Of a stretch of DNA of 64,000 nt, positions 476 to 60,405 are shown piece by piece (within the stretch, counting starts at the first letter, position 1; each line of letters opens with the position of its first letter). The notes under the pieces are model-generated. The model was not told the DNA's origin and did no database searches. It saw only the letters and a list, made by a program, of their open reading frames with translations. The position numbers were made by a program, and so were the translations under genes. This stretch comes from Bacteroidales bacterium (GTDB lineage Bacteria > Bacteroidota > Bacteroidia > Bacteroidales > VadinHA17): positions 117,195-181,194 of the forward strand of contig PLNT01000036.1 in the NCBI GenBank assembly GCA_003141895.1. Direction: 5' to 3'.

Positions 476-533
476 CAACCTTAACCTTAACCTTAACCTT
501 ATGTGTTATGCCATTATGCCATTATGCCATTAA
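476..533. repeat. TTAACC hexamer run (476-502) followed by an octamer array, family B variant GCCATTAT x3 (503-533)
   Basis: Direct reading: caacct taacct taacct taacct ta / tgtgttatg ccattatg ccattatg ccatta. It lies about 58 nt upstream of the start codon at 591. Confidence 0.9.
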
Positions 534-590
534 AATTATATCTTTATATCGCCATTAAATACATGATAATCGAATTTTAAAATTTATACT

Positions 591-1040
591 ATGTCACTAA
601 CTGAGAAAATTGCCAGCGATCTGATTGCAGCAATGAAAGCTAAAGATAAAGTTGTCCTGGAAGCTATAAGGGCTGCAAAAACGGCATTTACCCTTGCCAG
701 AACCGAAAAAAGCGGTGATACAGTCCTGACTCCTGAAGAGGAATTGAAAATCATTCAGAAATTAGTAAAGCAGCGCAGGGAATCTGCTGCTATTTATAAA
801 GAACAAAACAGACCCGATTTATATGAGAAAGAGGTGATCGAAGCAGATGTTCTTGAAAAATATCTGCCTGCAAAAATGAGTGAAGAGGAATTGGTAAAAA
901 TTCTTAAAGTAATTATTGAACGTCTGGGTGCCAAATCACCTTCTGATATGGGCAAGGTAATGGGTATTGCCACAAAAGAACTCGCAGGAAAAGCCGATGG
1001 GAAAGAGATTTCTGAAAAGGTTAAACAATTGCTCGGATAA
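591..1040 (+). CDS. GatB/YqeY domain-containing protein
   Basis: 149 aa. The sequence MSLTEKIASDLIAAMKAKDKVVLEAIRAAKTAF...LVKQRRESAAIYKE...EKEVIEADVLEKYLP is the typical YqeY-like pattern. Confidence 0.8.
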   Translation: MSLTEKIASDLIAAMKAKDKVVLEAIRAAKTAFTLARTEKSGDTVLTPEEELKIIQKLVKQRRESAAIYKEQNRPDLYEKEVIEADVLEKYLPAKMSEEELVKILKVIIERLGAKSPSDMGKVMGIATKELAGKADGKEISEKVKQLLG

Positions 1041-1045
1041 AAAAA

Positions 1046-1084
1046 GGCGTAAGGGCGTAAAGGCCCAAAGACATAAGGGCTTAG
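1046..1084. repeat. octamer tandem array, family B in reverse orientation
   Basis: GGCGTAAG GGCGTAAA GGCCCAAA GACATAAG GGCTTAG. It starts 6 nt after the stop at 1040, between convergent genes. Confidence 0.9.
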
Positions 1085-13432: not shown

Positions 13433-13469
13433 TTATCCTTATTTTCGTCGTTGTACCTTTAATAGGAAT

Positions 13470-13504
13470 GTCCTGCGGTCTTTCGGTCTTGCAGTCCTGC
13501 AGTC
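13470..13504 (+). repeat. octamer tandem array, family A (GGTCTTGC-like)
   Basis: GTCCTGCG GTCTTTCG GTCTTGCA GTCCTGCA GTC. Confidence 0.9.
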
Positions 13505-13554
13505 AAATTTTGATTATAAAGAAAGTTTAGTTCTCTATTTATTAGAGCCTTGTC

Positions 13555-13594
13555 GGCCGTTACGCCTCTACGCCTTTAAGCCGTTGCGCCGTTA
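13555..13594 (+). repeat. octamer tandem array, family B (GCCGTTAC/GCCTTTAA)
   Basis: GGCCGTTA CGCCTCTA CGCCTTTA AGCCGTTG CGCCGTTA. The last unit overlaps the stop codon of the minus-strand gene ending at 13592. Confidence 0.9.
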
Positions 13595-14395
13595 TTTATC
13601 CCTGAAGAGCCTTACACTCAGACCATAATTCGGTTCAACCTTTTCAAGGGTTGCCGATTCGGTATATACACCAATTTTGATCTGCCAAACTTCTTTTTCA
13701 TCAACCGGAGTACTGCTCCAGTAATGAGCACATGCCCCAAGGCTGTTAAAAACTCCACGCGCATAACGTTCTCCTCCATACAGGCTGTTGAATCCGCTTT
13801 CGCCACCTGTTTTCAGCTGTTCATAGACCTTCTTACTGTCACCTCCAAGGTATGTATGTAAAGATTCCCATTCTTCTTTGGTAGGCAAATGCCATCCTTT
13901 TGGGGGTATTGTCTTTGCCGCTTCCCAATCATAAAGAAAACCGTAATTTATAAGTTTATTCTTCTTCTCATCTTCATATTCCCAGTAATTGCCCCGGGAA
14001 GGTTTTTTTGCGAGGTTTTCAGCCATGATGACATGTTCGCCTATTTTTATTACATTATGAGTTGATCCGTCACTCTCATCATAAAAGGTACCATGTCCGC
14101 AGATTTCACATATATCATTCTTCATGTGATGCATATTATGGCGTATCTGACCGCATTTAGTACATTTTTCACAGTTCTTAATCCAATTATGATGATTCTG
14201 ACGGATTTTTCCGCAAACTGAACATTTTTCACAATCGTGCGACCAGTCATGCTCTTCCTCACCAAATACCTGACCACATCTGGAACATTTTCCGCAATCA
14301 GCTGAGACCTCATGTTCAGCGTCTCTTACTTTACCACATTCGGAACACTTACACCCGTCCCACGAATGAATACCAAATTTACATTTGAATGACAT
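13592..14395 (-). CDS. FISUMP (Fibrobacter succinogenes major paralogous, TIGR02145-type) domain protein with N-terminal tandem Cys/His zinc-knuckle repeats
   Basis: The C-terminal half reads FLYDWEAAKTIPPKGWHLPTKEEWESL...GFNSLYGGERY...HYWSST...GLSVRLFRD. The N-terminal half has 4-5 repeats of H-x-W-x3-C-x-K-C-x2-C-G. No signal peptide is present. Confidence 0.7.
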   Translation of the reverse strand: MSFKCKFGIHSWDGCKCSECGKVRDAEHEVSADCGKCSRCGQVFGEEEHDWSHDCEKCSVCGKIRQNHHNWIKNCEKCTKCGQIRHNMHHMKNDICEICGHGTFYDESDGSTHNVIKIGEHVIMAENLAKKPSRGNYWEYEDEKKNKLINYGFLYDWEAAKTIPPKGWHLPTKEEWESLHTYLGGDSKKVYEQLKTGGESGFNSLYGGERYARGVFNSLGACAHYWSSTPVDEKEVWQIKIGVYTESATLEKVEPNYGLSVRLFRDK

Positions 14396-16913: not shown

Positions 16914-16974
16914 AGTTATTCAAATCCTGTTTAATCTCAATCAATACTGAAGTTCATAAATTCATGTTTAATGA

Positions 16975-17006
16975 GCCTTTAAGCCGTTACACCGTTACGC
17001 CTTTTT
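16975..17006 (+). repeat. octamer tandem array, family B
   Basis: GCCTTTAA GCCGTTAC ACCGTTAC GCCTTTTT. It ends 1 nt before the stop codon (17007-17009) of the minus-strand gene. Confidence 0.9.
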
Positions 17007-17546: not shown

Positions 17547-17585
17547 AATACTAAATTTAAAATTTGGGCAAAAATATAAAAAATA

Positions 17586-17610
17586 GGTGTACGGTGCGCG
17601 GTGCGTGGTC
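17586..17610. repeat. short tandem array, GGTGCGNG family
   Basis: GGTGTACG GTGCGCG GTGCGTG GTC. Confidence 0.7.
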
Positions 17611-18307: not shown

Positions 18308-18350
18308 TTAGAATTCTAACCGCAAATTTAGGATAAATAAGTAAAGAATT

Positions 18351-18478
18351 GTCTTGCGGTTCCCGAGTCGCTTCGCTCTCGGGATTTGGCTTCGCCGAAC
18401 TCTCCCGCTACGCGGGAGCGGTTCGTCACTTCCCCGCTTTGCGGGGCAGGCTGTTCCTCAACTTGCGGTCTTGAAGTC
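18351..18478 (+). repeat. mosaic palindromic element, long form (3 hairpin modules)
   Basis: The modules are CCCGAG-tcgcttcgc-CTCGGG, CTCCCGC-tac-GCGGGAG and CCCCGC-tttgc-GGGGC. Its outer parts match the short inverted copy at 39231-39284. Confidence 0.8.
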
Positions 18479-18943: not shown

Positions 18944-19014
18944 AGTCTTGCGGTCCTGCGGTACCCCACACTCCCAGGCTCTCCATTTTTTCCTTTACGC
19001 CTTTGCGCCTTTTT
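18944..19014 (+). repeat. octamer arrays: family A (18944-18966) then family B (18991-19014)
   Basis: AGTCTTGC GGTCCTGC GGTACC ... TCCTTTAC GCCTTTGC GCCTTTTT. It lies about 32 nt upstream of the start codon at 19046. Confidence 0.9.
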
Positions 19015-19045
19015 CATTATATTAGACGTTCAAACTTATCACCCA

Positions 19046-19384: not shown

Positions 19385-19396
19385 TTTTCTTGTTTA

Positions 19397-19448
19397 TGTC
19401 TTGCGGTCTTGCGGTCATAATGACGACATGACCGCACGACTGCATGAC
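19397..19448. terminator. bidirectional hairpin built from two inverted family-A octamer arrays
   Basis: TGTCTTGCGGTCTTGCGGTCAT-aatgacgac-ATGACCGCACGACTGCATGAC, followed by TTTTATTA. It lies between convergent genes ending at 19384 (+) and 19454 (-). Confidence 0.55.
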
Positions 19449-19453
19449 TTTTA

Positions 19454-41356: not shown

Positions 41357-41418
41357 ATGCGAGACTATAATTAATAGTGATATTAAAAACACCCTGGAAA
41401 TTTGCTAATATCAGATAT

Positions 41419-41440
41419 GTGTGGTAATTTTGTACCACAC
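41419..41440. promoter_or_regulatory. perfect palindrome upstream of the XRE gene (candidate operator)
   Basis: GTGTGGTA-attttg-TACCACAC. It ends 16 nt before the ATG at 41457. Confidence 0.4.
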
Positions 41441-41456
41441 TAACCTGAAATGAACA

Positions 41457-41831
41457 ATGAAATCATCATTTGCAAATTTTATTCGCGAAAAAAGAATAGC
41501 CAAAGGCTTGACTCTGCGGGAATTTTGCAGGCTCTGCGGATTTGACTCAAGCAACTGGAGCAAAGTTGAGAGAAGTCTCGCATCTCCTCCTCAAAGCAAA
41601 AATGTACTCGACTCAATTGCTTCTGCTCTTAAAATTGAAGCAGGCAGTCAGCTGTATAAAGAAATGTTTGATCTGGCGGCTCTTTCAACAATTCCTGAAG
41701 AATTGATAGAATCTGAAATTCTGGAACAACTACCTGTTTTCTTCAGAACAGTAAGGGGAGAAAAACCTACTGAAGAAGAGTTGAAAACGTTGATAAATAA
41801 AATAAGGTCATCATGGACCCCGGAAAAATAG
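41457..41831 (+). CDS. XRE-family HTH transcriptional regulator
   Basis: 124 aa. The HTH is LTLREFCRLCGFDSSNWSKVERS. It overlaps the next gene by 19 nt. Confidence 0.75.
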   Translation: MKSSFANFIREKRIAKGLTLREFCRLCGFDSSNWSKVERSLASPPQSKNVLDSIASALKIEAGSQLYKEMFDLAALSTIPEELIESEILEQLPVFFRTVRGEKPTEEELKTLINKIRSSWTPEK

Positions 41832-42448
41832 TCTCTATAAAAATGACCCTGGATAAAATCAGGGAAGAGGCAGAATCTTTCAGGGCAACCCACATCTTTT
41901 CCTCGAATTTGCCGGTAGATATCGAAAATGTGGTCGAAGCTACTCTTGGTATGAGGATAATTCCAATAGAGAATCTCCAGAAATTATGTGATATGGAAGG
42001 CTTTATTTCAAATGACTTTACCTCAATCTATGTTGATAAATTTCTTTATCAGGATGACCGATACTATAAGCGGGTCAGATTCACAATAGCTCATGAAATT
42101 GGTCATTATGTACTGCATCGCAGTACAATTGACAGTCAGAAGTTCGATGATGGAAATGATTGGATTAAATTCAGAATTGGCCTAAAAGATGACACTCTGG
42201 GCTGGTTTGAAACACAGGCTTCTGAATTTGCCGGCAGACTATTGGTTCCATTGGATTCTCTGGTAGAAGAATTCAGATCAAAACGGCAAATAGTTATTAA
42301 AAAGTTTTCCTCATGGGATTCACCTAAAATCAATGATGACGATTTGTTTTCAATTATTGCTCCTTTGATCTGCAGCAGATTTGATGTTTCCGCGGAAGTT
42401 ATTGAAAGAAGACTTAGAAAAGAGAATATTATGAATTTGATTGGATAA
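41813..42448 (+). CDS. ImmA/IrrE-family zinc metallopeptidase
   Basis: It has an HEXXH motif in FTIAHEIGHYVLH and a downstream EFAGRLLVP block. It is paired with an XRE regulator in the classical ImmR/ImmA layout. An alternative start lies at 41843. Confidence 0.8.
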   Translation: MDPGKIVSIKMTLDKIREEAESFRATHIFSSNLPVDIENVVEATLGMRIIPIENLQKLCDMEGFISNDFTSIYVDKFLYQDDRYYKRVRFTIAHEIGHYVLHRSTIDSQKFDDGNDWIKFRIGLKDDTLGWFETQASEFAGRLLVPLDSLVEEFRSKRQIVIKKFSSWDSPKINDDDLFSIIAPLICSRFDVSAEVIERRLRKENIMNLIG

Positions 42449-42489
42449 TAAGGGATCGGATGCATACCTATATGCTCGAAAAAATCCTG

Positions 42490-42657
42490 GATATGGCTGC
42501 AACTAAAGACCCGACTTTATGAAAAGACCCATAAAATTTTGAGACCTATATGAAAAATGTTTACAGGGCTCTTCTTACAAGGGGAATGAAGGGGTGTTAT
42601 GTGTATTTTACTGATAAAGAGACGGAGGAGTATTTCAGATCTAAAATGGAGATTTGA
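42490..42657 (+). pseudogene. decayed duplicate of the DUF2075 gene 3' end
   Basis: It translates as DMAATKDPTL*KDP*NFETYMKNVYRALLTRGMKGCYVYFTDKETEEYFRSKMEI. The intact gene end (41192-41356) reads DISATKDPMLRRSPENFEKHVKNIYRTLMTRGMKGCYVYFTDKETEKYFRERME. The remnant has two in-frame nonsense codons. Confidence 0.8.
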
Positions 42658-42810
42658 TCATTGTAACAACTTTTTGAATAATAATAAATTTGTCAAAGTT
42701 GTTTTTTGTGATTAACAACCTTTTTAAGTTATAATTTGCTTATTATCAATAACCTGCTGCCTTTTGTTAATGGTTGTACGGAATCAAAACTGGATATTCA
42801 CGTAAGTAAG

Positions 42811-43130
42811 GATTTGTCATGTCACAATAAAGTCGTCTAAGTGGCGATGCAAAAACCATGACAACTACGCTTAGGCAGGCAGCCCTATTGACTTTGTCAC
42901 GTTAGAAGGATCTGTCCGGGTGAAATAAGATATAATAAGTTGGTTTATGTTTTCTCGCATAGAGTTTGGGGGCCTATTAAGAAGTTGTCCGGGCTGCCGA
43001 CCGTTTCCCGCGAAGCCGATGTCATGATATAACGAATTTCTCTCGGGTAAGAAAGCGAAGCGGGAAGCCAACCGAGGAGACCGCGTCAGCGGGCGACGAG
43101 CTCATCGAATCCATTGCGCAGCAATGGTGA
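42811..43130. other. GC-rich non-coding block with multiple long-range complementarities (candidate structured RNA, class unknown)
   Basis: There is no credible ORF. The pairings I could verify are 42814-42821/42857-42864 (8 bp), 42878-42885/42991-42998 (GGCAGCCC/GGGCTGCC) and 43005-43011/43060-43066 (TTCCCGC/GCGGGAA). Two more are 43081-43084/43089-43092 and 43111-43117/43121-43127 (CCATTGC-gca-GCAATGG). Several GNRA-like loops (GTGA, GTAA, GCGA/CGAA) are present. Confidence 0.3.
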
Positions 43131-43168
43131 GATAATTAATTATACCGTCCGTGTTTGCTGGAGTGATT

Positions 43169-43786
43169 TTAAACTTTAGAATAATCAGAGTTAATTTGTC
43201 TTGGAGCAAAATATCCTTTTATACAGTTTTTGTTTCGAATACAAATCTGAATATGGTTTTTCTCTTTGAATCCAGCATTTGGATAGATATCATCTCCTTC
43301 CCAAAATACACCTCTTACAGAATCAAATGATCTTAATTCAGAATTAGGAGATCTCAGTGAATGTAATGTTTCAATAACTGCACAATCTAAGTCTCTAAGA
43401 AGGAGATCTCTATTCTCTCCAATAGGTTTGTTTGCTAATTTGATTCCCGACTTTGAAATTGCTGTCATTAAAAGGTCATATCCATCTTTTAATAATTGTA
43501 GGTTTGCGTAATCAGTAAAATCAAGACAATAACCAAGGTCAATTACTGCCCCAATAACTGCAGGTGTTTTAATAGGATTTTTTGCTTTTTGTGGATGATC
43601 CCTGAGAAATCTTGCAAATTCAAGAGCTCTTGATGGGCTATTCTCCCAAAAATAAATACCATGACCTAACCAATCATAAGTATTGTCACTTTGTTTTAGA
43701 TCTTCTTTCCCTAAAAGAATATTATCAACAATGGATTCATCACAACCATGAAATCCAAGGATTAATCCTGTTTTGGTTGTATACAT
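43169..43786 (-). CDS. hypothetical protein with a PARP/ART-like H-Y signature (DUF3990-like by recollection), candidate toxin/effector
   Basis: 205 aa. The motif LILGFHGCD (H13) is followed by DWLGHGIYFWENSPSRALEFA (Y45), then PAVIGAVIDLGYCLDF. The gene is clearly more AT-rich than its neighbours. Confidence 0.45.
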   Translation of the reverse strand: MYTTKTGLILGFHGCDESIVDNILLGKEDLKQSDNTYDWLGHGIYFWENSPSRALEFARFLRDHPQKAKNPIKTPAVIGAVIDLGYCLDFTDYANLQLLKDGYDLLMTAISKSGIKLANKPIGENRDLLLRDLDCAVIETLHSLRSPNSELRSFDSVRGVFWEGDDIYPNAGFKEKNHIQICIRNKNCIKGYFAPRQINSDYSKV

Positions 43787-43941
43787 AGATTGGAATAAGA
43801 CTTGGTCAAATTACCTCTGGAAGTAATTATACCACTAGAAATAAGAAGTGCTCTGGCACTAGACTTAGATTTTGAGACAGTCTTAGTTTTAGCTTTTATA
43901 ACCTTTTTAAAATCTCTTACTTCCCTTGTTGTCATAGCCAT
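43762..43941 (-). CDS. 59-codon ORF overlapping the start of the ART-like gene by 25 nt (candidate antitoxin/partner), below the 60-aa cutoff of the track
   Basis: My translation is MAMTTREVRDFKKVIKAKTKTVSKSKSSARALLISSGIITSRGNLTKSYSNLCIQPKQD. The overlap with the downstream gene is in TA-like arrangement. Confidence 0.4.
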   Translation of the reverse strand: MAMTTREVRDFKKVIKAKTKTVSKSKSSARALLISSGIITSRGNLTKSYSNLCIQPKQD

Positions 43942-44789
43942 AAAATTGTTACTGCAAAGTTGCGAATTTCTTTTATTAAATCAAAAACCTATACTGGTAA
44001 AAATATTGCTTCGAAAAATAACTACAAGGTGTTCTATATCTATTCAATAACAGATTTGAATTGTAAAAGGTTTCTATTGGTGCCGAGGTCCCAAATTTGT
44101 GTGCCATTCCAGCTAACTTGTCAATATAATCAAATATCTTACGATTTTCTGCCTTCCCGAAAGAGTGGTGAAGAAGATAAATAAAGGCTAAAGGAGAAAG
44201 TTGTAAATCAGCTTTACTTTCAACTTTCTAGTTTTTCCTTTCTCCTTGTTTTTAAGATGCTTCCGCCCCATCAGTCACAATATAAGGCGCAGGGCAAAAA
44301 GGCAAAAAATGAGCTGGATTATGTAAATTTCGATCAGGTTAATCATGCTCACGCCACGTCAGTCACAATACAAAAAGGACTAACGATCCGTTAACCTATT
44401 AAGAATCATTGTTTAATAGGGATTGAGGGGGAATTGTTACTTTCAGGCCATGGGACATGGAGCAAGGGGCATAGAGCAAAATCCTAAATCCTTTAACCGC
44501 AAAGGTCGCAAAGACCACCTTCGGTGGTTAAGACGCAAAGGGCACAAAGGTTCTCACCGATTTCCCTTTTCTACTCGCAAATTCCAATTTATTCCACCGT
44601 CATTGCGAGGAGCTTGCGATGCAGCAATCCCCTGAACAGACAGTAATTAATTTCGTGGTTACTCCGGGAGATTGCTTCGCTCCGCTCGCAATGACCTTTT
44701 AATTTTATAGGATTTAGCAAGGCTGTGGTTCAGAAGTTTTTCAGGCTTGGGATCATCTTCTTCGTCTTCAAAATCCATAATAATTTGAA

Positions 44790-45332
44790 TTAATTAGTTT
44801 TAAATCCGATTCTCTTTCGTTGCTTAAAATCGGTTTGTTCTTGTTTTGATTGTTCAAGTTCTTTGAGATATTCGAATATCAGAGTTACTTTTTCATCAAG
44901 CTCCAGATCCTTCTTTTCAAGCATTTCAAGTTTATTCAAAATATCCTTATGTGATTCAATCATTGCTCTCATCCTTGTAAACACCCGGATAATCTGAATA
45001 TTAACGGAATTTGCTCTTTCACTGTTTAATACACTCGAGAGCATTGCTACTCCTTGTTCGGTAAAAGCGAATGGCCTGGCTCCTCCAAAGAATTTTTTTG
45101 ATGGTATCAACTTTTGTGATACCATCAAATTAATTTCATCATCTGTCAATTCGAACATAAAATCTTCCGGAAACCTATCTTTATTCCGTCTGACTGTTTG
45201 TTTTAATATTCTGGTTTCCACCGCATAAAGAGAAGCGAGATGATAATCGAGCATCACTTTTTCCCCACGGATTATATAAATGAGGCTCGAAATACTTTCT
45301 TCATTTGGTATTGGCAAGCGGCTCATAATCAA
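44790..45332 (-). CDS. ORF6N (KilA-N/Bro-N-related) domain DNA-binding protein
   Basis: IYIIRGEKVMLDYHLASLYAVETRILKQTVRRNKDRFPEDFMFELT...FAFTEQGVAMLSSVLNSERA is the very characteristic ORF6N pattern. The tail is coiled-coil. Confidence 0.8.
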   Translation of the reverse strand: MIMSRLPIPNEESISSLIYIIRGEKVMLDYHLASLYAVETRILKQTVRRNKDRFPEDFMFELTDDEINLMVSQKLIPSKKFFGGARPFAFTEQGVAMLSSVLNSERANSVNIQIIRVFTRMRAMIESHKDILNKLEMLEKKDLELDEKVTLIFEYLKELEQSKQEQTDFKQRKRIGFKTN

Positions 45333-45336
45333 ATGG

Positions 45337-45353
45337 TATCACAAATTGTGATA
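45337..45353. promoter_or_regulatory. palindrome TATCACAA-A-TTGTGATA, copy 1 of 3
   Basis: It lies 5 nt upstream of the ORF6N start codon. It overlaps a second palindrome, GATAGCTT-A-AAGCTATC (45350-45366). Confidence 0.4.
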
Positions 45354-45450
45354 GCTTAAAGCTATCAATATTAATTATATCCATAATTCCAGACCTCTAA
45401 GGTCACATTTTTTGACCTTAAACAAGGCTTTATAAAAAGATTTTAAAATT

Positions 45451-45509
45451 GGAGGACGCAAATTGCGATCTCCAAATTTCATCTTGAGGACGCAAATTGC
45501 GACCTCAAG
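45451..45509 (-). terminator. tandem near-identical hairpins downstream of the Cys-rich gene
   Basis: The hairpins are GGAGGACGCAAATTGCGATCTCC (45451-45473) and CTTGAGGACGCAAATTGCGACCTCAAG (45483-45509, perfect 12-bp stem). On the minus strand they are followed by AATTTTAAAATCTTTTTA. Confidence 0.45.
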
Positions 45510-45527
45510 TTTTAACTCCGTACCAGT

Positions 45528-45546
45528 TTATCACAAATCGTGATAA
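45528..45546. promoter_or_regulatory. palindrome TTATCAC-AAATC-GTGATAA, copy 2 of 3
   Basis: It lies 13 nt downstream of the stop of the gene ending at 45559 and about 195 nt upstream of the ORF6N start. Confidence 0.35.
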
Positions 45547-45558
45547 GCTGGTCATGAA

Positions 45559-46041
45559 TTACAATTTCTCATATACCCCACATTTGAACTCTTTCTCATC
45601 TCTTTGATCGTTCCTGTTCATATCGCATAAAAGATTTCCTTCCCAATCATCGATATTATTTCTAATGCATGTTAAACAGAGTGGTTGCATTTTGATGGTG
45701 TCACGTCGGATTTCATATCCGTCATCATCAAAAAATCCATTTATATTACCTGGGTCCATGTTATTAATATTTATCCGGCCATCCTTATCCCTCTTATCGA
45801 GGGCGCCATCAATTTCATAATCACCTAAGGGTAACTCTTTTCCTGTAATACAACTAAAACATGCAAAAGGGGCAGAAGCTGAACCTACTATCCATATATC
45901 CTTACCGCATTTGCACTTTACACCTTTGTTGTAGTCATCCAACGCAGCTTCAATCCTGACTCTCAGAACTTTTTCATTTTCATTTGGATTATTCTGCAAA
46001 TGAATTTTTACATACTCGTCAATTGTAATCGGGATCCACAT
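45559..46041 (-). CDS. Cys-rich hypothetical protein (putative zinc-ribbon motifs)
   Basis: The start is moved to MWIPITIDEYVKIHL (160 aa). The upstream 111 track codons are translated repeat elements. The Cys motifs are CKCGKD...CFSC and CLTC...C...C. Confidence 0.5.
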   Translation of the reverse strand: MWIPITIDEYVKIHLQNNPNENEKVLRVRIEAALDDYNKGVKCKCGKDIWIVGSASAPFACFSCITGKELPLGDYEIDGALDKRDKDGRININNMDPGNINGFFDDDGYEIRRDTIKMQPLCLTCIRNNIDDWEGNLLCDMNRNDQRDEKEFKCGVYEKL

Positions 46042-46084
46042 AATTTTATAATTAAGGTTTTTATCCAGCACAATCTCAATGGAT

Positions 46085-46099
46085 ATCACAATTTGTGAT
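46085..46099. promoter_or_regulatory. palindrome ATCACAA-T-TTGTGAT, copy 3 of 3
   Basis: It lies 44 nt upstream of the start codon at 46041. Confidence 0.4.
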
Positions 46100-46340
46100 T
46101 TCCAATCTATCTTCAAAAACTTTTTTATTAAACGCAGCGAGCGTTTCAAATCAAATATACAAATATTTTGAATAAAAATGAAATCCTTTAACCCTGCCTC
46201 CCGGCAGGCAGGCGCACCCTTCGGCAAGCTCAGGGTAATTGAAGAACTTACACATATGTACACTGAGAAGCACAACTTGTCCCGCAAGGCGGGAGAGAGA
46301 CACAGAGAAAATCCTAAGAGAAAATTGCTCGTGGCATTGG

Positions 46341-46482
46341 GAGATTGCTTCGTTTCTCTAGCAATGACCAACATTTAATATGGATACAGTGTTGAGACCA
46401 GAACCCCCTCGGCCTTCGGCCACTCCCCCTTAAGGGGGAGAAAATTCTGGAAGTAATAAAATTCACCAGACACCCAGCAACC
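46341..46482 (+). repeat. 142-bp composite repeat, copy 1 (direct repeat of 47891-48032)
   Basis: GAGATTGCTTCG..GCAATGACCAACATTTAATATGGATACAGTGTTGAGACCAGAACCCCCTCGGCCTTCGGCCACTCCCCCTTAAGGGGGAGAAAATTCTGGAAGTAATA..ATTCACCAGACACCCAGCAAC. The offset to copy 2 is exactly 1550 nt, with about 8 mismatches. Confidence 0.9.
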
Positions 46483-46500
46483 AGCAGCCAGCAACCGACT

Positions 46501-47784
46501 TTACTCAAAATCAATGCACGAGTACCTGAAACTCATTAGTATCGACTTATACTGATTTACAAAATCTTTACCGATGCTTCCAAATAAATCGGGATGAAGA
46601 ATATTTTTCTTCTCCAGGGCTATATATGTATTTTTTAAAACAAAACTTTTCGAACCGCAATCCAGCTTAATTTCGGGCAATAACTTAGCCTTTTCGGTAA
46701 CAGTTCCTCCAACACTTGAATATGAAAATACCGTATCTCTCAATGATTTGAAATTCATCGAATCGATATCATACATGGTTTTATAGAAAGTCGTGTTTGA
46801 ATTCCCGGTGTCGAAGAAAAATGGCAGTCTTTTATTTTTATAAGTTACATCAATAATATAATCATCGCCCTTAATAAACAGATTGGGAATATTTGTTCCG
46901 GCGACCGGATCTTTTGGAATATATAGTAGCGAATCGGTAAAACGAATTGATTCGAAACGCATAATTAAAGGGAAACCAATAATCCCGTTTATTTTATACA
47001 TGCCATTGGCAAAGGTCAGCAGACTATCAGGGAAAACAATGAATTCCGCATTTTTGAATTCAATATTTTCGATAAATCCGTGGTCGGCAATAGCTATCCT
47101 GGAAGCATTACGCGTACCGGTTGCACCCGCCACGTAAACAAGCGAATTGGGTATTATCCTGAGATTTAACTTTTTTGCAGTAGATTCGCTGACCACATTT
47201 ACATTAGCGCCAGTGTCGAAAATCATATTAACAGTAGAGTCACTTTTTGCTTTCACCCGAAGCAAATTATAGCCTGCCAGATCTTTTATAACTTTAATTT
47301 CACTATCCGTATTTTTAATAACCTGCGTTGGTAATTCATCTTCTAAAAACCCATATGAGAGATTATCATCTTTCAGTTCGACATAATCACCCGAATCAAT
47401 AAATCGTTTATAATTTTCAATCAGATCCTCACTCAGTTCTTTCAGCTTTCTATAATTGAGAAGCTTCTGGTTGTTGTAATATTCATTCTGAATCAAAGTA
47501 TAACTCACTGTATCACTGAACTTATTGAACTGTCCGCGAAATTTTTGAATCAGTGCATTGGATTCGTCCGGCTGGTTTAAAACCGACTTCAGGATAAGAT
47601 CATAATAAATGAGTGTCTTTTCATAATAAGCGCTCCTGTTGGAAGATAGCTCAGTGTACAATTCACTGAATTTTTTACTGTTAGCCAGATCATTCAGTTT
47701 TTTGATTGGCCGGAATTCGTTTGTACATGCCATCTCGGTACATAATACCATGGCAAACAGGCAAAGTCTGTTTAATTTTTCCAT
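46501..47784 (-). CDS. retropepsin-like aspartyl protease family protein (two DTG lobes), lipoprotein/secreted
   Basis: 427 aa with a hydrophobic N-terminus containing Cys. The two motifs are MIFDTGANVNVVS and FFFDTGNSNTTFY. Confidence 0.7.
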   Translation of the reverse strand: MEKLNRLCLFAMVLCTEMACTNEFRPIKKLNDLANSKKFSELYTELSSNRSAYYEKTLIYYDLILKSVLNQPDESNALIQKFRGQFNKFSDTVSYTLIQNEYYNNQKLLNYRKLKELSEDLIENYKRFIDSGDYVELKDDNLSYGFLEDELPTQVIKNTDSEIKVIKDLAGYNLLRVKAKSDSTVNMIFDTGANVNVVSESTAKKLNLRIIPNSLVYVAGATGTRNASRIAIADHGFIENIEFKNAEFIVFPDSLLTFANGMYKINGIIGFPLIMRFESIRFTDSLLYIPKDPVAGTNIPNLFIKGDDYIIDVTYKNKRLPFFFDTGNSNTTFYKTMYDIDSMNFKSLRDTVFSYSSVGGTVTEKAKLLPEIKLDCGSKSFVLKNTYIALEKKNILHPDLFGSIGKDFVNQYKSILMSFRYSCIDFE

Positions 47785-47890
47785 AATTTAAATGTAGCAA
47801 TTTTTTAACCGGAAAGAACGCAAAGTAGGCGCAAAGTTCGCAAAGGAGAAGAACTTACACAGAGATCACGGAGAAGCACAGAGGGTCACA

Positions 47891-48032
47891 GAGATTGCTT
47901 CGCTGCGCTCGCAATGACCAACATTTAATATGGATACAGTGTTGAGACCAGAACCCCCTCGGCCTTCGGCCACTCCCCCTTAAGGGGGAGAAAATTCTGG
48001 AAGTAATAGGATTCACCAGACACCCAGCAACA
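47891..48032 (+). repeat. 142-bp composite repeat, copy 2
   Basis: See 46341-46482. The two copies flank the aspartyl protease gene. Confidence 0.9.
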
Positions 48033-48156
48033 AGCACCCGAATTAACAACCTCTGTTGATAATTATTCCCTCCGGTAAACGATGGAATCCGATAACAACA
48101 ACTACTTTTAAAATATATATTCCAGGGTGGAAAAACATAATTAAAGTATATAAGAA

Positions 48157-49248
48157 ATGGCGCAACAATATCTTGATCATTCAAAAGCAATTTTAACCTC
48201 CAAACGTTCGAATTTTAAAGGCGGAAGCAAAGAATCGGGGATCATCTCTTTATTCGGGTACCAGGATGAATATGATCTGAGAGAAGGATATCCGTTACTG
48301 ACCACCAAAAAGATGGCCACAAAATCTATGTTTCATGAAACAATATGGTTCCTGAGAGGGGATACAAATATTAAATATCTTGAAGACAATAACGCCCCTG
48401 TGTGGAGACCCGATGCATTTCAGGGCAACCTTCCCGGGATGATAAAAGCAGGAATTTTTTCTGAAGGGCTTTCAAAGTATTCTGCCGACTGGGACAAAGC
48501 CATGGAAGAATATGGTCAGAGAATAAGAGAAGATGCTGAATTTGCAGAGAGATGGGGAGATGCCGGACCAATTTACGGGAAACAATGGAGAAGATGGGAA
48601 TTTTTTGATCATGACAAAAACAAGTTTATTGAAATAGATCAACTGTCAAATCTGATAGATGGTCTGAGAAAGAAACCAACCGGGAAAAAACATATTGTTG
48701 ATTCATGGAATCCCGGAGACACTCCAAAAATGTCCTTACCTCCTTGTCATGTTTTATACCAGGCAACTGCAAATGAAGAAGGCGAGCTGGAATTGCAGCT
48801 CTACCAGAGAAGCTGTGATCAGTTTCTGGGTGTTCCTTTTAATATAGCCAGTTATGCTGCCCTCACCCAGGTAATTGCCCAGGAAGCAGGGATGATCCCT
48901 AAAACATTTATCCATACTTTCGGTGATTCACATTTTTATGCCGGTATCGGGAAGAGAACCGAATGGCATAAAGAGAATTTCAGGGAACTGCAGAAAAGAA
49001 TAAGAGCTGTTTCTGAAAAAGCAGGATATCTGGAGGTTGTTGAATGGATCAATAAAAATGCTCCCAGTGATGGCAATGAGGAAAAATATGATCATGTGAC
49101 TGCCATTCTTGAACAATTGTCGAGAGACCCAAAACCTCTGCCAAAGCTGCACATTACAAAAAAACCTTTTGATCAGCTGACTATTGATGATTTTGTGGTA
49201 GAAGATTATAATCCGCATCCGGCGATAAGAAGAAGTATGGCGGTGTAG
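48157..49248 (+). CDS. thyA: thymidylate synthase (ThyA) family protein, divergent, with two long insertions
   Basis: The conserved blocks are FHETIWFLRGDTN, GPIYGKQWR, LPPCHVLYQ, LYQRSCDQFLGVPFNIASYA and GDSHFY. It is 363 aa, against 264 aa for E. coli ThyA. Confidence 0.75.
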   Translation: MAQQYLDHSKAILTSKRSNFKGGSKESGIISLFGYQDEYDLREGYPLLTTKKMATKSMFHETIWFLRGDTNIKYLEDNNAPVWRPDAFQGNLPGMIKAGIFSEGLSKYSADWDKAMEEYGQRIREDAEFAERWGDAGPIYGKQWRRWEFFDHDKNKFIEIDQLSNLIDGLRKKPTGKKHIVDSWNPGDTPKMSLPPCHVLYQATANEEGELELQLYQRSCDQFLGVPFNIASYAALTQVIAQEAGMIPKTFIHTFGDSHFYAGIGKRTEWHKENFRELQKRIRAVSEKAGYLEVVEWINKNAPSDGNEEKYDHVTAILEQLSRDPKPLPKLHITKKPFDQLTIDDFVVEDYNPHPAIRRSMAV

Positions 49249-49285
49249 GGCGGTGTGGGGCGTGCGGCTTGCGGCTTGCGGCAGG
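49239..49285 (+). repeat. short tandem array, GGCGGTGT/CGGCTTG family, overlapping the thyA stop codon
   Basis: GGCGGTGT AGGGCGGTGT GGGGCGTG CGGCTTG CGGCTTG CGGCAGG. Confidence 0.8.
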
Positions 49286-49336
49286 AAGACGAAGGACTTA
49301 GGGCGCACGACACACGACACAAGGAAAACCAAACCA

Positions 49337-49394
49337 ATTCCCCTCCCCCGGAGAACCTGCCCCGCTTCAGCAGGGGGTTAGGGGTGGGTTTTTT
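49337..49394 (+). repeat. hairpin module (copy 2 of 39030-39085) ending in a T-run, possibly the thyA terminator
   Basis: AATTCCCCTCCCCCGGAGAACCTGCCCCGCTTCAGCAGGGGGTTAGGGGTGGGTTTTTT. Confidence 0.7.
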
Positions 49395-49563
49395 AAAAAA
49401 CCAGATTCTCTAAACCTGAATGTTTTTTTGAAATCCATTAACCGCAAAGCACACAAAGTAGGCGCAAAGTTCGCAAAGAAAAAACGAAGAACTTACACAA
49501 CTTGTCCCGCGAAGCGGAAGAGTAACACGGAGAAGCACAAAGGGACACAGAGTTAATACGACC

Positions 49564-49590
49564 TGAGCTCTGTGCTCTGTGCCCTGAGCC
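49564..49590. repeat. heptamer array CTGTGCY/CTGAGCC family
   Basis: TGAGCTC TGTGCTC TGTGCCC TGAGCC. It ends 5 nt before the stop of the minus-strand gene at 49595. Confidence 0.8.
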
Positions 49591-49594
49591 TTTT

Positions 49595-51403: not shown

Positions 51404-51497
51404 AGCCGTTGCGCTGTGCCCTACGCCTTTTTTGACCGCAGGACTGCAAGACTACTTTGCCTTTAAGCCGTTGCGCTGGTATGCCGTTGTGCCATTT
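51404..51497. repeat. composite arrays: family B (51404-51433), family A reversed (51434-51455), family B (51458-51497)
   Basis: AGCCGTTG CGCTGTGC CCTACGCC TTTTTT / GACCGCAG GACTGCAA GACTAC / TGCCTTTA AGCCGTTG CGCTGGTA TGCCGTTG TGCCATTT. Confidence 0.9.
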
Positions 51498-51589
51498 TCC
51501 AAAAATAAATTTGACTTTAATTTTCATTTGGTATAACTTTAATCATCTTCAGGATAAACGATCCTTTATTAATTTAAAATCATTAAGCT

Positions 51590-57707: not shown

Positions 57708-57723
57708 TTTTGGAAAATTATAA

Positions 57724-60267
57724 TCAGATGTCAGGTATAAGGTGTGAGGTATGAGGTATGAGGTTAATCCTGAATGGTTTCACTTTCCAGATCTTTTCGC
57801 AATAATCATTGATGGACCGGTCTGATGAGAATTTTCCCATCCTGGCTACGTTCATTATAGCCATCCTGTTCCATTCAGATGGGTTTTTCCAGGTTTCAGC
57901 AACCAGGTCCTGGCAGGCAATATACAATGGATAATCAGCCATAAGCATAAACGGATCGTCCCACAACAGGTTGTCGGTGATGGATTTAAACAGGTTGCAA
58001 TCGCCCCTGGAGAAATAGCCTGAATTAATCATGTTTATCACTTCGCGTAACTCATTGTTATGATCGTAAATAAAGTGCGGGTTGTACACATTACGTTTGG
58101 ATTCTTCAACCTGGGCAGCAGTGAGACCAAACATGAAGAAATTATCTTCACCCACTTCTTCCCGTATTTCGACATTTGCCCCATCGAGAGTGCCGATGGT
58201 GAGTGCGCCATTCATAGAAAACTTCATGTTGCCGGTACCACTTGCTTCTTTCCCCGCTGTAGATATCTGTTCCGAAAGGTCTGCTGCCGGGTAAATATGC
58301 TGCGCATTGGTTACGTTAAAATCAGGGAAGAAAACCACCTTGAGCCTGTCTTTAACATCAGGGTCGCCGTTTATCACATCACCCACTGAGTTGATCAGCT
58401 TGATCATGAGTTTAGCTGTATGATATCCGGGAGCTGCCTTGCCCCCAAAAATGAATGTCCGGGGAGCCAGATCAATGTCCGGGTTTTGCTTTATGCGCAA
58501 GTAACGCGTAATGATATTCAATATATTAAGATGCTGCCGTTTGTACTCGTGAATGCGCTTTACCTGTATGTCAAACATGGAAGAAGGATCAACGATAATG
58601 CCGGTCCTTTCTTTAATTAGTGTCGCGAGGAGTTTTTTATTCTCCAGTTTTACATTCCTGAACTTTTCTCTGAAAGCAGCATCGCCGGCAAAAGGTTCCA
58701 GCTTACGCAGTTCATCAAGCTTGCCTGGCCATTTATCACCAATTGAATCTGTTATGAGCTTGCTTAATCCCGGATTACTCAATATAATAAAGCGACGTGG
58801 TGTTACTCCGTTTGTAACATTATAAAAACGTTGCGGGAACATTTCCACCCAGTCGGGCAAAACCTGTTGTTTAAGAAGTTCAGTATGCAGTTCTGCCACG
58901 CCGTTAATTGCACAGCTGCCAGCACATGCAAGGTTGGCCATACGGATATATTTTCCCCCGGTCTCATCGATGAGGGACATTCTCGATAGTTTGCCTTCAT
59001 CACCCGGGTACTGCTCACTTACTTTTTTCAGAAAGCGTGAATTAATTTCATAGATAATCTCCAGCACGCGTGGGATCAGATAAGAGAAAAGGCCTACAGA
59101 CCATTTTTCTAACGCTTCAGGCAGCAGTGTATGATTCGTATAACTAAATGTTTTGCAGGTTGTATCCCATGCTGTGTCCCAATCAATTTTATATTCATCC
59201 ACCAGTATGCGCATTAGTTCAGCCACTGACACTGAAGGATGCGTATCATTAAGTTGTATGGCCCATCTTTTATGAAATTCCTGTGGTTTGCCATCAAATC
59301 TCAGGTGTATATTCATCATATCCTGCAGTGAGCATGAAACAAAGAAGTACTGTTGTTTGAGACGCAGCTTTTTCCCTTCAAGCATTTCATCATTTGGATA
59401 TAATACTTTGCTGATATTTTCCGACTTCACTTTATAGTCTACAGCCTTATAATAATCGCCATGATTGAAGGATTCAAAGTCAAATGATTCCTCTGCTTCA
59501 GACTTCCACAGGCGGAGAAAGTTGCATGAGGGTACCTTGTATCCCATAACCGGAGTGTCATAGGGTATTCCTTTCACCATATATGCAGGTTTCCACCGGA
59601 AGTAATTATGTCCATCGGAGTCAATATATGACTCGGTGGAGCCACCGAAATTAACATTCACAGAAAGCTCAGGTCTGGCAATCTCCCAGGGGTTTCCCTT
59701 AAGTAACCATTTGTCGGTTCTTTCCACCTGCCAGCCATCATGGATTTCCTGATCGAAGATGCCAAACTCATAGCGTATTCCATATCCAATGGCAGGTATT
59801 TGTTGTGAGGCAAGTGAGTCGATATAACAGGCTGCCAAACGCCCCAAACCTCCATTGCCAAGCCCTGGTTCTTCTTCCTGTGCTATAATCTCGTCGAAGT
59901 TAAAACCAAGCTCTTCAATGGCCTGCTTCATCTCATCAAAAACATTCAGGGCAATAAGGTTAACGCCTAACTGCGGCCCCAGAAGAAACTCAGCTGACAG
60001 GTAACTGACAAGCCGTACATCTTTATTTTCAAACACTGCGTTCATCGTACTATGTTCCCGCTGTTTGAGTCTGTCGCGTACGGTATACGAAACAGCCATG
60101 TACAGGTCATTAAGAGAAGTATTCACAATGTTTCTGCCCTGCTGGTAAAACAAATGTTCAGTAACAGCCTGTTTCAGGGAGTTTACATCCATGCCGGCAC
60201 GCACATCAATGATTGTTGTCGAAGCACTCTTAGGCTTACTATCGCCTATATTGGTCTTTATTGCCAT
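57724..60267 (-). CDS. glgP: glycogen/alpha-glucan phosphorylase
   Basis: The blocks are EEPGLGNGGLGRLAAC, the PLP-site block EASGTGNMKFSMNGALTIGTLDGANVE, and KRIHEYKRQ. The start is moved to MAIKTNIGD (60267). Confidence 0.9.
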   Translation of the reverse strand: MAIKTNIGDSKPKSASTTIIDVRAGMDVNSLKQAVTEHLFYQQGRNIVNTSLNDLYMAVSYTVRDRLKQREHSTMNAVFENKDVRLVSYLSAEFLLGPQLGVNLIALNVFDEMKQAIEELGFNFDEIIAQEEEPGLGNGGLGRLAACYIDSLASQQIPAIGYGIRYEFGIFDQEIHDGWQVERTDKWLLKGNPWEIARPELSVNVNFGGSTESYIDSDGHNYFRWKPAYMVKGIPYDTPVMGYKVPSCNFLRLWKSEAEESFDFESFNHGDYYKAVDYKVKSENISKVLYPNDEMLEGKKLRLKQQYFFVSCSLQDMMNIHLRFDGKPQEFHKRWAIQLNDTHPSVSVAELMRILVDEYKIDWDTAWDTTCKTFSYTNHTLLPEALEKWSVGLFSYLIPRVLEIIYEINSRFLKKVSEQYPGDEGKLSRMSLIDETGGKYIRMANLACAGSCAINGVAELHTELLKQQVLPDWVEMFPQRFYNVTNGVTPRRFIILSNPGLSKLITDSIGDKWPGKLDELRKLEPFAGDAAFREKFRNVKLENKKLLATLIKERTGIIVDPSSMFDIQVKRIHEYKRQHLNILNIITRYLRIKQNPDIDLAPRTFIFGGKAAPGYHTAKLMIKLINSVGDVINGDPDVKDRLKVVFFPDFNVTNAQHIYPAADLSEQISTAGKEASGTGNMKFSMNGALTIGTLDGANVEIREEVGEDNFFMFGLTAAQVEESKRNVYNPHFIYDHNNELREVINMINSGYFSRGDCNLFKSITDNLLWDDPFMLMADYPLYIACQDLVAETWKNPSEWNRMAIMNVARMGKFSSDRSINDYCEKIWKVKPFRINLIPHTSHLIPDI
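57733..57767. repeat. short tandem array AGGTATG family lying inside the last about 14 codons of the glgP ORF
   Basis: AGGTATAA GGTGTG AGGTATG AGGTATG AGGTTAA. It is translated on the minus strand as ...LIPHTSHLIPDI*. Confidence 0.75.
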
Positions 60268-60360
60268 AGGAAGTTTTTGATTTTTTTCAGTTGCTATCGT
60301 AAATAAAGGCAGGAAAAGGTACAAAAAAAATATCTTTCATCGGGCGAACACTTCCATTGT

Positions 60361-60405
60361 GACTGCAAGACCGCAGGACCGCAAGACCGCAGGACTGCAG
60401 GACTA
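60361..60405 (-). repeat. octamer tandem array, family A (reverse orientation on the plus strand)
   Basis: GACTGCAA GACCGCAG GACCGCAA GACCGCAG GACTGCAG GACTA. The last unit overlaps the stop codon (60403-60405) of the minus-strand gene. Confidence 0.95.

Follow-up and report, generated by a model that had tools for sequence, protein, structure and literature searches.

Short-unit tandem arrays at gene boundaries in an uncultured Bacteroidales lineage run with their G-rich strand away from the nearest gene

The window analysed here, by which we mean the whole 64,000-nucleotide stretch at positions 117,195 to 181,194 of contig PLNT01000036.1 (assembly GCA_003141895.1, forward strand), is a 64-kb chromosomal segment of a Bacteroidales bacterium with a GC content of ~39%. 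Gene calls across the window were taken from the matching assembly records. The genes are ordinary housekeeping and regulatory genes, including those for a hybrid histidine kinase, an AI-2E transporter, a DEAD-box helicase, an O-methyltransferase, a MacB/FtsX ABC system, glycogen phosphorylase, DUF748 proteins, and a beta-lactamase-fold protein, and conserved TAnnTTTG -7 boxes of the Bacteroidetes type are present. Proteins of the window are matched exactly in peat metagenome assemblies, including the metagenome-assembled genome (MAG) GCA_003154725.1 (contig PMEL01000050.1) and several ENA, JGI, and Logan assemblies, and a gene with 80% identity to the window's is found in 'Bacteroidales bacterium SPRUCE 222'. 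Between the genes lie tandem arrays of 6-, 7-, or 8-nt units, with 3–8 copies per array, and it is the placement, orientation, and turnover of these arrays that we describe.

Arrays were located with Tandem Repeats Finder and a separate period scan. At one threshold the window contains 29 period-8 tracts, compared to 0–14 for any other period between 4 and 12. When an array is defined strictly (at least 3 copies and at least 78% self-match), 18 period-8 arrays are found and 18/18 are intergenic, though only 17% of the window is non-coding; the chance expectation is 0.03 under a third-order Markov model built on intergenic DNA. Under the same model period 7 (8 observed versus 0.6) and period 6 (4 versus 0.27) are also enriched, and periods 9 and 10 are not enriched in the window. 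Looser thresholds yield ~24–35 arrays of period 6–8. The original prediction made for this DNA had counted at least 24 tracts, which is right: 20 arrays of the octamer families A and B have three or more units, and the GGTGCG and TTCTCCC arrays are added to these. Its description of the intergenic spaces as saturated is overstated, since half of the intergenic regions of at least 60 nt (21 of 42) bear an array, with arrays taking up 1.17 of the 10.97 kb of intergenic DNA. The claim that no array lies within a credible coding sequence (CDS) holds generally (0/18 strict arrays) and fails for one heptamer array, at 57733–57767, which lies in the glycogen phosphorylase open reading frame (ORF). 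At the 3' end of this ORF (57724–57767, minus strand) the repeat has been absorbed into a conserved gene, yielding an array-encoded tail.

The individual arrays are listed in Table 1. All example positions given earlier were correct, both for A (23539–23590, 20327–20391, 60359–60406) and B (13555–13595, 23614–23654, 51458–51498) and for the minor families (GGTGCGNG at 17585–17610, 30137–30168, and 49239–49286; CTGTGCC at 39167–39204 and 49560–49592; TTAACC at 471–504 and 39138–39168). The arrays cluster against gene boundaries and are not randomly placed within intergenic DNA. An array does lie within 10 nt of the stop codons at 13592, 17007, 21331, 23540, 24955, 26676, and 60403, as had been noted; the eighth case proposed, at 52070, is weak and consists of 2 units.

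Orientation relative to the neighbouring gene is not random either. Within the window, A arrays adjoining a stop are in the sense orientation in 8/8 cases and B arrays so placed appear as the complement in 5–6/6, in agreement with the original prediction. In other genomes, A arrays within 40 nt of a stop are sense in 33 cases and antisense in 10. A tends to point away from the nearest gene in convergent (17:7) and divergent (10:1) regions, and in tandem regions the sense A arrays adjoin the stop (13:1). B, when scored by its T-rich strand, behaves in the opposite manner to A. The contrast is reconciled when strands are compared by G versus C: for A (GGTCTTGC), the complement of B (GTAAAGGC), and the minor families alike, it is the strand in which G exceeds C that leaves the gene.

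This polarity does not depend on the identity of the unit. A unit-blind test was applied to arrays of period 6–8 located within 60 nt of one ORF and having an absolute GC skew of at least 0.15. Across all arrays the G-rich strand runs 5' to 3' away from the nearest gene in 75 cases versus 15 (p≈9e-11). Outside the window, families distinct from A and B give a ratio of 57:12; loci unselected for arrays give 17:2, and the rule is followed both at stops (63:13) and at starts (12:2). In the window alone 15 arrays obey and 5 do not, and 15 arrays, most A arrays among them, are too weakly skewed to score. No corresponding rule exists for AT skew overall (54:52). The sense of A past stops, the antisense of B past stops and its sense before starts, and the recurrent order of A then B on one strand all follow from the G-outward rule; in that order, which had been observed correctly, the left gene is bordered by a G-rich array and the right gene by a C-rich one.

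Three other causes of the polarity were considered and rejected. The skew is +0.15 inside arrays and -0.044 in array-free DNA past stops, and general flank composition is therefore not the source. Nor is ORF calling, as arrays inside the 3' ends of ORFs are also G-rich in the sense direction (11:2). Fail-safe stops and the avoidance of start codons are not the source either, as codon content equals the composition prediction (stops, 39 versus 35.8; starts, 4 versus 4.7). It is true that the complement of B places stops in all frames, as the original prediction stated, and this too equals what unit composition predicts.

Table 1. Short-unit tandem arrays and associated features of the window (positions in the window; x, copies of the unit).
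Feature	Position	Strand	Context
TTAACC hexamers, ~5.7 copies	471–504	+	Divergent region; C-rich on +, right-hand gene nearer; obeys GC-skew rule
B variant GCCATTAT, x4.4	502–536	+	Start 591 lies 54 nt downstream; -7-like box TATCTTTA follows
B	1041–1072	-	GCCTTTAC on -, GTAAAGGC in sense of + gene 591–1040; abuts that gene's stop
A, GGTCYTGC, x4.6	13469–13505	+	
B, x5	13555–13595	+	Overlaps stop (13592) of - gene 13592–14395
B, x4	16972–17006	+	Abuts stop (17007) of - gene
GGTGCG(N), x3.6	17585–17610	+	
A, x2 (18944–18959); B, x3 (18986–19015)	18944–19015	+	B end to start 19046, 31 nt
Inverted A pair	19391–19450	+ and -	A on + (19397–19412) past + gene stop; A on - (19434–19449) past - gene stop; joint hairpin, then UUUUAUUA
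B, x3–4	19964–19995	+	Long divergent region
A, x8, 24-nt higher-order period	20327–20391	+	
B, x3.6	20395–20423	+	65 nt ahead of start 20489
Convergent region	21190–21334	+	In order: stop, A x2 (21190–21205), B x3.6 (21217–21245), terminator, B x3.5 (21303–21334)
Bidirectional hairpin terminator	21271–21295		Between two B arrays, the second overlapping stop 21331
A, x6	23539–23590	+	Unit 1 overlaps TAG stop of AI-2E transporter gene
B, x5	23614–23654	+	4 nt ahead of conserved -7 box TATCTTTG (23658–23665); helicase start GTG 23705
A, x4–5	24956–24993	+	Immediately past helicase stop (24955)
TTCTCCCN, x3.8	25003–25032	+	14 nt from stop of - gene at 25047
A, x3.9	25536–25566	+	Divergent region
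A, x4, GGTCATGC variant	26676–26708	+	Begins 1 nt past stop 26676
GGTGCGNN (30137–30168); A (30165–30198)	30137–30198	+; -	GGTGCGNN by left gene; A 37–39 nt from stop of right-hand - gene
A, x3.5	36480–36507	-	Start 36593 lies 85 nt downstream
B, x4.5, GCCATTGC/GCCGTTMY	38405–38440	+	Convergent region
Mosaic	39138–39335		TTAACC x5 (+), CTGTGCC x5 (+), A x3.4 (-, 39208–39234), GC-rich hairpin element, B x3–5 (+, from 39297)
ACCAGCA heptamers, x4	46465–46497	+	3 nt from stop of - gene at 46501
G-rich heptamers GGCGTGC/GGCTTGC	49239–49286	+	Overlaps, then extends past, stop 49248 of + gene
CTGWGCY heptamers, x4.7	49560–49592	+	2 nt from stop of - gene at 49595
A, x2–3 (51438–51453), then at once B, x5 (51458–51498)	51438–51498	-; +	91 nt ahead of start 51590
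AGGTATG heptamers, x4.6	57733–57767	+	Within last ~15 codons of glycogen phosphorylase ORF (- strand); tail ...FRINLIPHTSHLIPDI
A, x6, 16-nt higher-order period	60359–60406	-	Unit 1 overlaps TAG stop of gene 60403–63510

As the window stems from a metagenome-assembled genome, we considered whether the arrays are artefacts of short-read metagenome assembly. They are base-for-base identical (100%) in at least five independent assemblies (ENA, JGI, NCBI, and Logan), and six further assemblies of the same population differ only outside the arrays, where there are N gaps, a deletion of 11 nt within a CDS, and a contig end that diverges. A-type arrays are also found in MAG contigs of 1.2, 1.9, and 4.4 Mb, lengths from which the use of long reads can be inferred. 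Together with an ordered placement relative to genes that would not be expected of an artefact, these observations make this explanation practically negligible.

The turnover of the arrays was followed at orthologs of the DEAD-box helicase of 73–97% protein identity (loci from other genomes are given L numbers). The helicase starts at GTG 23705 and not at the ATG at 23759 of the automatic calls: the 54 nt between them encode a conserved FDELDLNPELLESIDY segment in 78/78 orthologs, and the original prediction was right to use 23705 as the start, conserved FDELDLNPELL coding sequence being present upstream of that ATG. The -7 box ACTATCTTTGCC (in the window, TATCTTTG at 23658–23665) and the leader are kept in every ortholog, and the DNA that immediately precedes the box is hypervariable. 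B arrays occupy it in the window, L134, L136, L168, and L171; L137 has four copies of GGTGTGAG there, and L173 and L176 have units resembling reverse A. Most orthologs of 85% identity have no array at this place. The region past the helicase stop is equally fluid. Here an A array and then a TTCTCCCN array are found in the window; its 97% relative L134 has A x2 and B x5; the 92% relatives L135 and L136 have a 20-nt spacer, with a lone TCTTGCGG remnant in L136; and in L137, also at 92%, B x5 adjoins the convergent gene's stop. GTCAGGC x6, GGGCGTAG x8, or GTTTYRC repeats are present in more distant relatives. Thus, at orthologous sites, arrays have been gained, lost, or swapped for another unit family between relatives of 92–97% protein identity, and they change faster than the flanking non-repeat spacer. 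This turnover indicates that the arrays are not conserved regulatory sites for particular genes. Within arrays, identical variant units adjoin one another and higher-order periods of 16 and 24 nt are seen, which is the product expected of slippage or unequal exchange. The original prediction had listed slippage-prone mobile repeats among its candidates. The slippage-prone part fits the variant units, the higher-order periods, and the turnover, although no copy-number variation was seen among the assemblies of this population; of a discrete mobile element there is no sign.

These observations bear on the possibility that the arrays are functionless by-products of polymerase slippage, found where and in the orientation in which they do no harm and having no role in cis. 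The extreme turnover at orthologous sites while the real promoter is kept would be expected of such by-products, as would the many unit types, the stop and start codon content that equals the composition prediction, and the octamer arrays of permuted units that match A and B in frequency in viral contigs. Lone units are likewise not avoided in genes: GTCTTGC, GCCTTTA, and GCCGTTA are not depleted in CDS, where their frequency is at the median of letter permutations. A unit-independent polarity of 75:15 that is absent from array-free flanks, however, needs a directional cause, and a small common set of units is found in dozens of species whose GC contents span 37–53%. Avoidance of start codons does not supply that cause, as it fails to account for the bias at stops and for the geometry of the GGGNATC repeats of other bacteria, which hold neither a start nor a stop codon in either orientation (PMC4692102). 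We therefore consider a pure by-product possible and, on balance, doubtful.

A second possibility is that gene ends are insertion sites of small non-autonomous mobile elements and that the arrays are parts of these, in the manner of miniature inverted-repeat transposable elements (MITEs) or of mosaics of repetitive extragenic palindromic (REP) sequences and bacterial interspersed mosaic elements (BIMEs). The swapping of families at the same orthologous site and the mosaics of several array types with GC-rich hairpins, such as that at 39138–39335, are suggestive of insertion; moreover, in L134 a hairpin element is inserted inside the A array, and in L055 inverted A arrays flank a gene-containing segment. 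The arrays, however, lack conserved ends, target-site duplications, and spacers common to A and B; every site has its own copy number and unit variants; no transposase is associated with them within the window; and the single-unit remnant in L136 fits expansion and contraction in situ. On this evidence the mobile-element explanation is quite improbable.

As RNA, lone arrays fold like shuffled sequence (z -1.7 to +1.25), and the sole array that fits the form of an intrinsic terminator is the inverted A/A pair at 19397–19449 between convergent genes, which folds strongly (-30.3 kcal/mol, z -6.3) and is followed by a U tail. A scan of the whole window with Rfam 15 at the gathering score gave no match. 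Hairpin-plus-U terminators of the canonical form are few overall and scarcer where arrays are present, being found past 10% of array-bearing stops versus 19% of others (p=0.037). The latter figure and the inverted pair are what could be cited for classical gene-end signals, that is, intrinsic terminators or 3' stabilising hairpins, which the original prediction had listed; in the hairpin sense this idea is not supported, since lone arrays fold no better than shuffles. Switches for phase variation are no better placed: array lengths are constant among assemblies, the neighbours are ordinary housekeeping genes, and the copy number of B would leave promoter spacing unchanged. Explanations of this classical kind are highly improbable. 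The arrays are neither hairpins nor conserved gene-specific regulatory sites.

Some B arrays stand close to promoters. A sigma-70 scan returned 67 sites versus 57 in shuffles, using a model that is uninformative for a Bacteroidetes-type organism. B arrays carry TTTG every 8 nt, and one such TTTG precedes the helicase -7 box by 21 nt, a distance that corresponds to the usual -33/-7 spacing of Bacteroidetes promoters. A -7-like box is found 4–16 nt downstream of 9/25 B arrays versus 0/25 in the opposite direction. Because orthologs without an array keep the promoter, a B array is compatible with a promoter and not required for it. In one viral contig, (GCGCCTTT)n followed by GATAATCTTTC occurs four times in a single orientation, and on the IMG/VR contigs L223 (5347, 6607, 7360, and 9715), L221, and L226, (GCGCCTTT)2–4 followed by GCGGGATAATCTTTC is found several times, again in one orientation. 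This viral layout resembles a repeated Bacteroidetes-type promoter in which a B-type array may form the -33 region. In another Bacteroidales MAG (L055, 6551–6780) the longest B-type array that we saw, with ~28 copies of GCCTTTCC or GCCCTTCC, lies directly upstream of the promoter of a gene for an UpxY/NusG-like antiterminator.

Protein-binding arrays, the last of the three roles among which the original prediction made no choice, may exist. Sense A arrays, for instance, could be tandem sites for a cold-shock-domain or other OB-fold single-strand-binding protein that would coat the 3' untranslated region with one molecule per 8 nt. The A core, GTCTTGC, has GTCTT-G in common with GTCTTTG/T, the optimal heptamer for CspB (PMC1904285), and one cold-shock domain spans 6–7 nt (PMC7825780). 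The 33:10 excess of sense A past stops and the unstructured nature of the arrays would suit such a protein, and a preference of cold-shock proteins for (GGUCUUGC)n over (GCAAGACC)n would be implied; RNA chaperoning, antitermination, or protection from decay could follow. This is a mere resemblance, however, to the site of a domain with low sequence specificity (PMC7825780). It would cover family A only, and neither the purine-rich complement of B nor the G-rich families past stops; A is also found antisense upstream of starts, and some arrays lie beyond terminators. We regard this role as quite improbable, marginally more so than that of mobile elements.

To describe the spread of the arrays, one genome per species was scanned for three consecutive GTCYTGC units, which returned at least 120 stretches. 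Among the matches listed, 74/120 are from Bacteroidota, nearly all of them 'Bacteroidales bacterium' MAGs of environmental origin (peat, soil, sediment, and digesters). The 8-kb loci from the matches listed (GC 37–53%) hold 147 period-8 and 144 period-7 arrays in 616 kb, and other families of the window, with GCCTTTMC, CTGTGCC-type, and GGTGCG-type units, recur in them. Units including GGTCTTGC, GCCKTTAC, and CTGTGCC are shared across dozens of environmental Bacteroidales MAGs. An unselected sample was provided by 78 metagenomic loci of ~361 kb in total that were retrieved through the DEAD-box helicase. These hold 24 period-8, 58 period-7, 31 period-6, and 4 period-9 arrays, and none of period 10 or 11. 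The lineage is thus generally rich in 6–8-nt repeats, and the window's genome is unusually rich in octamers. In viral contigs, octamer arrays of permuted units (19, 21, and 7 matches) are as common as those of A (9) and B (10), and on this ground we rejected the idea that A and B are universally special units. Matches in high-GC phyla are CCGTCYTG-type arrays, frequently within long open frames. Long CCGTCYTG octamer arrays, several per genome, occur in MAGs of Gemmatimonadota (Gemmatimonadales; L048, L090, L096, L111, L113, L117, L125, and L130) and likewise in a Chloroflexota MAG (L023, L063, and L080), which shows that genomes rich in octamer arrays exist in other phyla.

Other repeats accompany the arrays in the window. 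A second layer consists of short GC-rich hairpin elements (for example CCCGAGAGCGAAGCGACTCGGGA, CCCCGCTTCGGCGGGAGG, CCCCCTTAAGGGGGAG, GATTGCTTCGCTGCGCTCGCAATGAC, and CCCGATAGCTATCGGGA), which are frequently chained, occur in either orientation, adjoin arrays, and look like a REP/MITE-like family. They are found at 18335–18470, 28540–28700, 36290–36480, 38330–38370, 38930–39130, 39236–39290, 43060–43160, 44600–44650, 46400–46440, 47880–47990, and 49330–49380. Direct copies of 149 nt (95% identical) at 46341–46489 and 47891–48039 flank a gene for a retropepsin-like aspartyl protease (46501–47784), and both copies terminate in a hairpin element and an ACCAGCA heptamer array. Irregular A-rich repeats spaced by ~8–11 nt, of the CGCAAAG type (AACGCAAAGTAGGCGCAAAGTTCGCAAAGG) and the CACAGAG/CACGGAG type, occupy 44500–44590, 47805–47895, and 49430–49560; they are not strictly tandem and were missed by the period scans. 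The region 36593–46400 looks like a mobile or defence island. It encodes a HipB/HipA-like toxin-antitoxin pair (36593–38250), a Schlafen-group-3-like helicase (39479–41356), a helix-turn-helix protein paired with an M78 peptidase (41457–42448), an ORF6N-domain protein, and many small ORFs, its GC skew is unlike that of the surroundings, and octamer arrays are scarcer inside it. Finally, a 120-nt tandem duplication (62764–62986; 1.9 copies, 81% identity) within a 1035-aa DUF748-related gene is an in-frame protein repeat with no relation to the octamers.

We propose, with a probability of roughly one half, that the arrays are slippage-generated simple-sequence arrays, of the type of short tandemly repeated repetitive (STRR) sequences and long simple sequence repeats (LSSRs), whose orientation is set by a transcription-linked filter. 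Arrays would arise, grow, shrink, and be replaced through slipped-strand mispairing or unequal recombination, and would survive only in non-genic DNA because neither 7 nor 8 is a multiple of three. The most likely cause of their orientation would be a filter linked to transcription. A polymerase leaving the gene would transcribe an array into G-rich RNA, while one entering it would produce unstructured RNA with more C than G and with a C-containing motif every 7–8 nt. This inward composition would be of the kind on which the termination factor Rho loads. Rho prefers unstructured RNA with C in excess of G, contacts ~5 nt per subunit with linkers of 4–5 nt, and suppresses antisense transcription; stopping antisense and read-through transcription is its best-established general role, and the Rho of Bacteroidota has a large N-terminal insertion that is thought to influence site choice (PMC12360218). 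Arrays would then be harmless to their own gene and could block incoming read-through or antisense transcription. The TTTG that B offers in each 8 nt would let its arrays occupy the -33 region without breaking Bacteroidetes-type promoters, and the copy number of B would not shift promoter spacing, because TTTG recurs every 8 nt.

A polar insulator that works by loading Rho is plausible given the role of Rho in limiting antisense and read-through transcription, the insertion in Bacteroidota Rho, and the lack of intrinsic terminators at most genes; reasoning from sequence, we hold it to be possible, as a minority view. Its wider form, in which gene-boundary short-unit repeats are general, unrecognised strand-specific insulators whose inward C-rich reading would, in Bacteroidales, load Rho or another single-strand RNA-binding factor such as a cold-shock protein, we judge unlikely. 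The G-outward rule does hold here for dozens of unrelated units. If the wider form were true, the arrays would be read in one way by polymerases leaving a gene and in another by those entering it, and slippage would let such sites arise and change fast. Candidate RNA ligands in the Rho and cold-shock readings are (GCAAGACC)n, (GGUCUUGC)n, (GCCUUUAC)n, and (GUAAAGGC)n.

Several observations weigh against slippage combined with a transcription-linked filter, or against Rho as the agent of that filter. No copy-number variation of the arrays was seen among assemblies of the window's population, so slippage is slow or the population clonal. Family A is nearly unskewed (G3:C2 or 3:3), and its bias therefore needs another or a very weak cause. 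The C-rich strand has only ~27–32% C and 17–20% G, a mild bias where Rho sites are concerned, arrays of 3–5 units (24–40 nt) fall below the full Rho footprint, and a 7–8-nt period is unlike the 9–10 nt per subunit of E. coli Rho. In L056 and L121 a canonical terminator stands between the stop and the array, five of the nine cases in which a B array precedes a -7-like box are the same helicase promoter, and the ORF models used outside the window are crude, especially at starts. Cyanobacteria, to our knowledge, lack Rho. Since Nostoc shares the geometry (PMC4692102), Rho is not the general cause. Expansion promoted by R-loops, or a pause of polymerases as they leave the gene, would likewise discriminate between G and C and may act in its place. 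What the polarity rule does is to narrow the cause to something that tells G from C on the transcribed strand, be it Rho loading, R-loops, or polymerase pausing. On the practical side, the arrays create spurious ORFs, mislead start calls, and add repeat-encoded tails, as in the phosphorylase, and should be masked in the annotation of MAGs from peat and sediment.

The original prediction knew of no described function for such arrays; like features have been described (STRR sequences, LSSRs, and TAACTGA and GGGNATC repeats), and their role is unresolved there too. Mazel et al. reportedly found STRR heptamers in heterocystous cyanobacteria in 1990. The window resembles them in having several short-unit families per genome in intergenic DNA and differs in that its units are mainly of 8 nt with heptamers a minority, whereas STRR sequences are heptamers only, with different units, and its host belongs to a different phylum. 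A literature search returned nothing on octamer arrays in Bacteroidales, although full-text coverage was incomplete and this is no proof of absence.

LSSRs with 5–11-nt units were surveyed in prokaryotes by Mrazek in 2007, and the account given here is that of the summary in PMC4679880. According to that summary, LSSRs, like the present arrays, are short tandem units, longer than chance, mostly intergenic, and phylogenetically patchy, with 7–8-nt units favoured, 9–11-nt units rare, and polymerase slippage proposed as the origin; the polymerase footprint was suggested to favour 7-nt slippage (PMC4679880). The arrays of the window are head-to-tail repeats of a unit within the 5–11-nt range, exceed chance expectation, and, where the unit is not a multiple of three, lie outside CDS with one exception, in the last 15 codons of an ORF. 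Unlike the LSSRs so summarised, octamers and not heptamers dominate the window, and the unit vocabulary is common to many species. MacGregor (2015) described TAACTGA heptamers in Beggiatoaceae, cyanobacteria, and some Bacteroidetes (PMC4679880). These share with the present arrays the intergenic tandem arrangement, and include long mixed heptamer arrays in some Bacteroidetes and unit-step indels between close strains; in contrast, the Beggiatoaceae repeats lie directly upstream of start codons in the forward orientation (PMC4679880). The window has no TAACTGA tandems, only 10 single copies.

Other known elements are more remote. The arrays contain no palindromic unit of the REP/BIME kind, fold like shuffles, and are adjoined by hairpin elements that are separate from them. 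Their 6–8-nt units without spacers differ from the ~23–50-nt repeats and unique spacers of CRISPR arrays, and, in contrast to contingency loci built on simple sequence repeats, they show no length variation among assemblies and lie outside CDS and promoter spacers. Read towards the gene they resemble Rho utilization (rut) sites in having more C than G, little structure, and evenly spaced C-containing motifs; rut sites, however, are not tandem, and the arrays are mildly skewed, short, and often <60 nt compared to ~60–80 nt. The action of the arrays would depend on orientation, and the likeness to rut sites is one of possible mechanism and not of class.

The closest likeness is to the GGGNATC/GGGGAYT heptamers of Xanthomonas and Nostoc, for which Rehm et al. 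(2015) found no function (PMC4692102). Those repeats lie 0–50 bp from the stop on the coding strand, frequently overlapping it, and on the non-coding strand upstream of ORFs, and vary widely in length and sequence between close relatives, as do the arrays described here (PMC4692102). The geometry is the same, with the G-rich strand pointing away from the gene (75:15 across all arrays scored). The GGGNATC repeats differ in carrying G-tracts that form G-quadruplexes and in preferring four units (PMC4692102), whereas the window has many families and 8-nt periods; no G-quadruplex motif (at least four tracts of at least three G) was found on either strand of the window. The arrays are an octamer-rich variant, in an uncultured Bacteroidales lineage, of known and unexplained short-unit intergenic tandem repeats. 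Tandem intergenic repeats of 7–8 nt have been known since 1990 with their role unexplained, and this lineage is a dense case with many families. What is new here is a general rule of G-outward polarity, which links the arrays of Bacteroidales to those reported from Xanthomonas and Nostoc.

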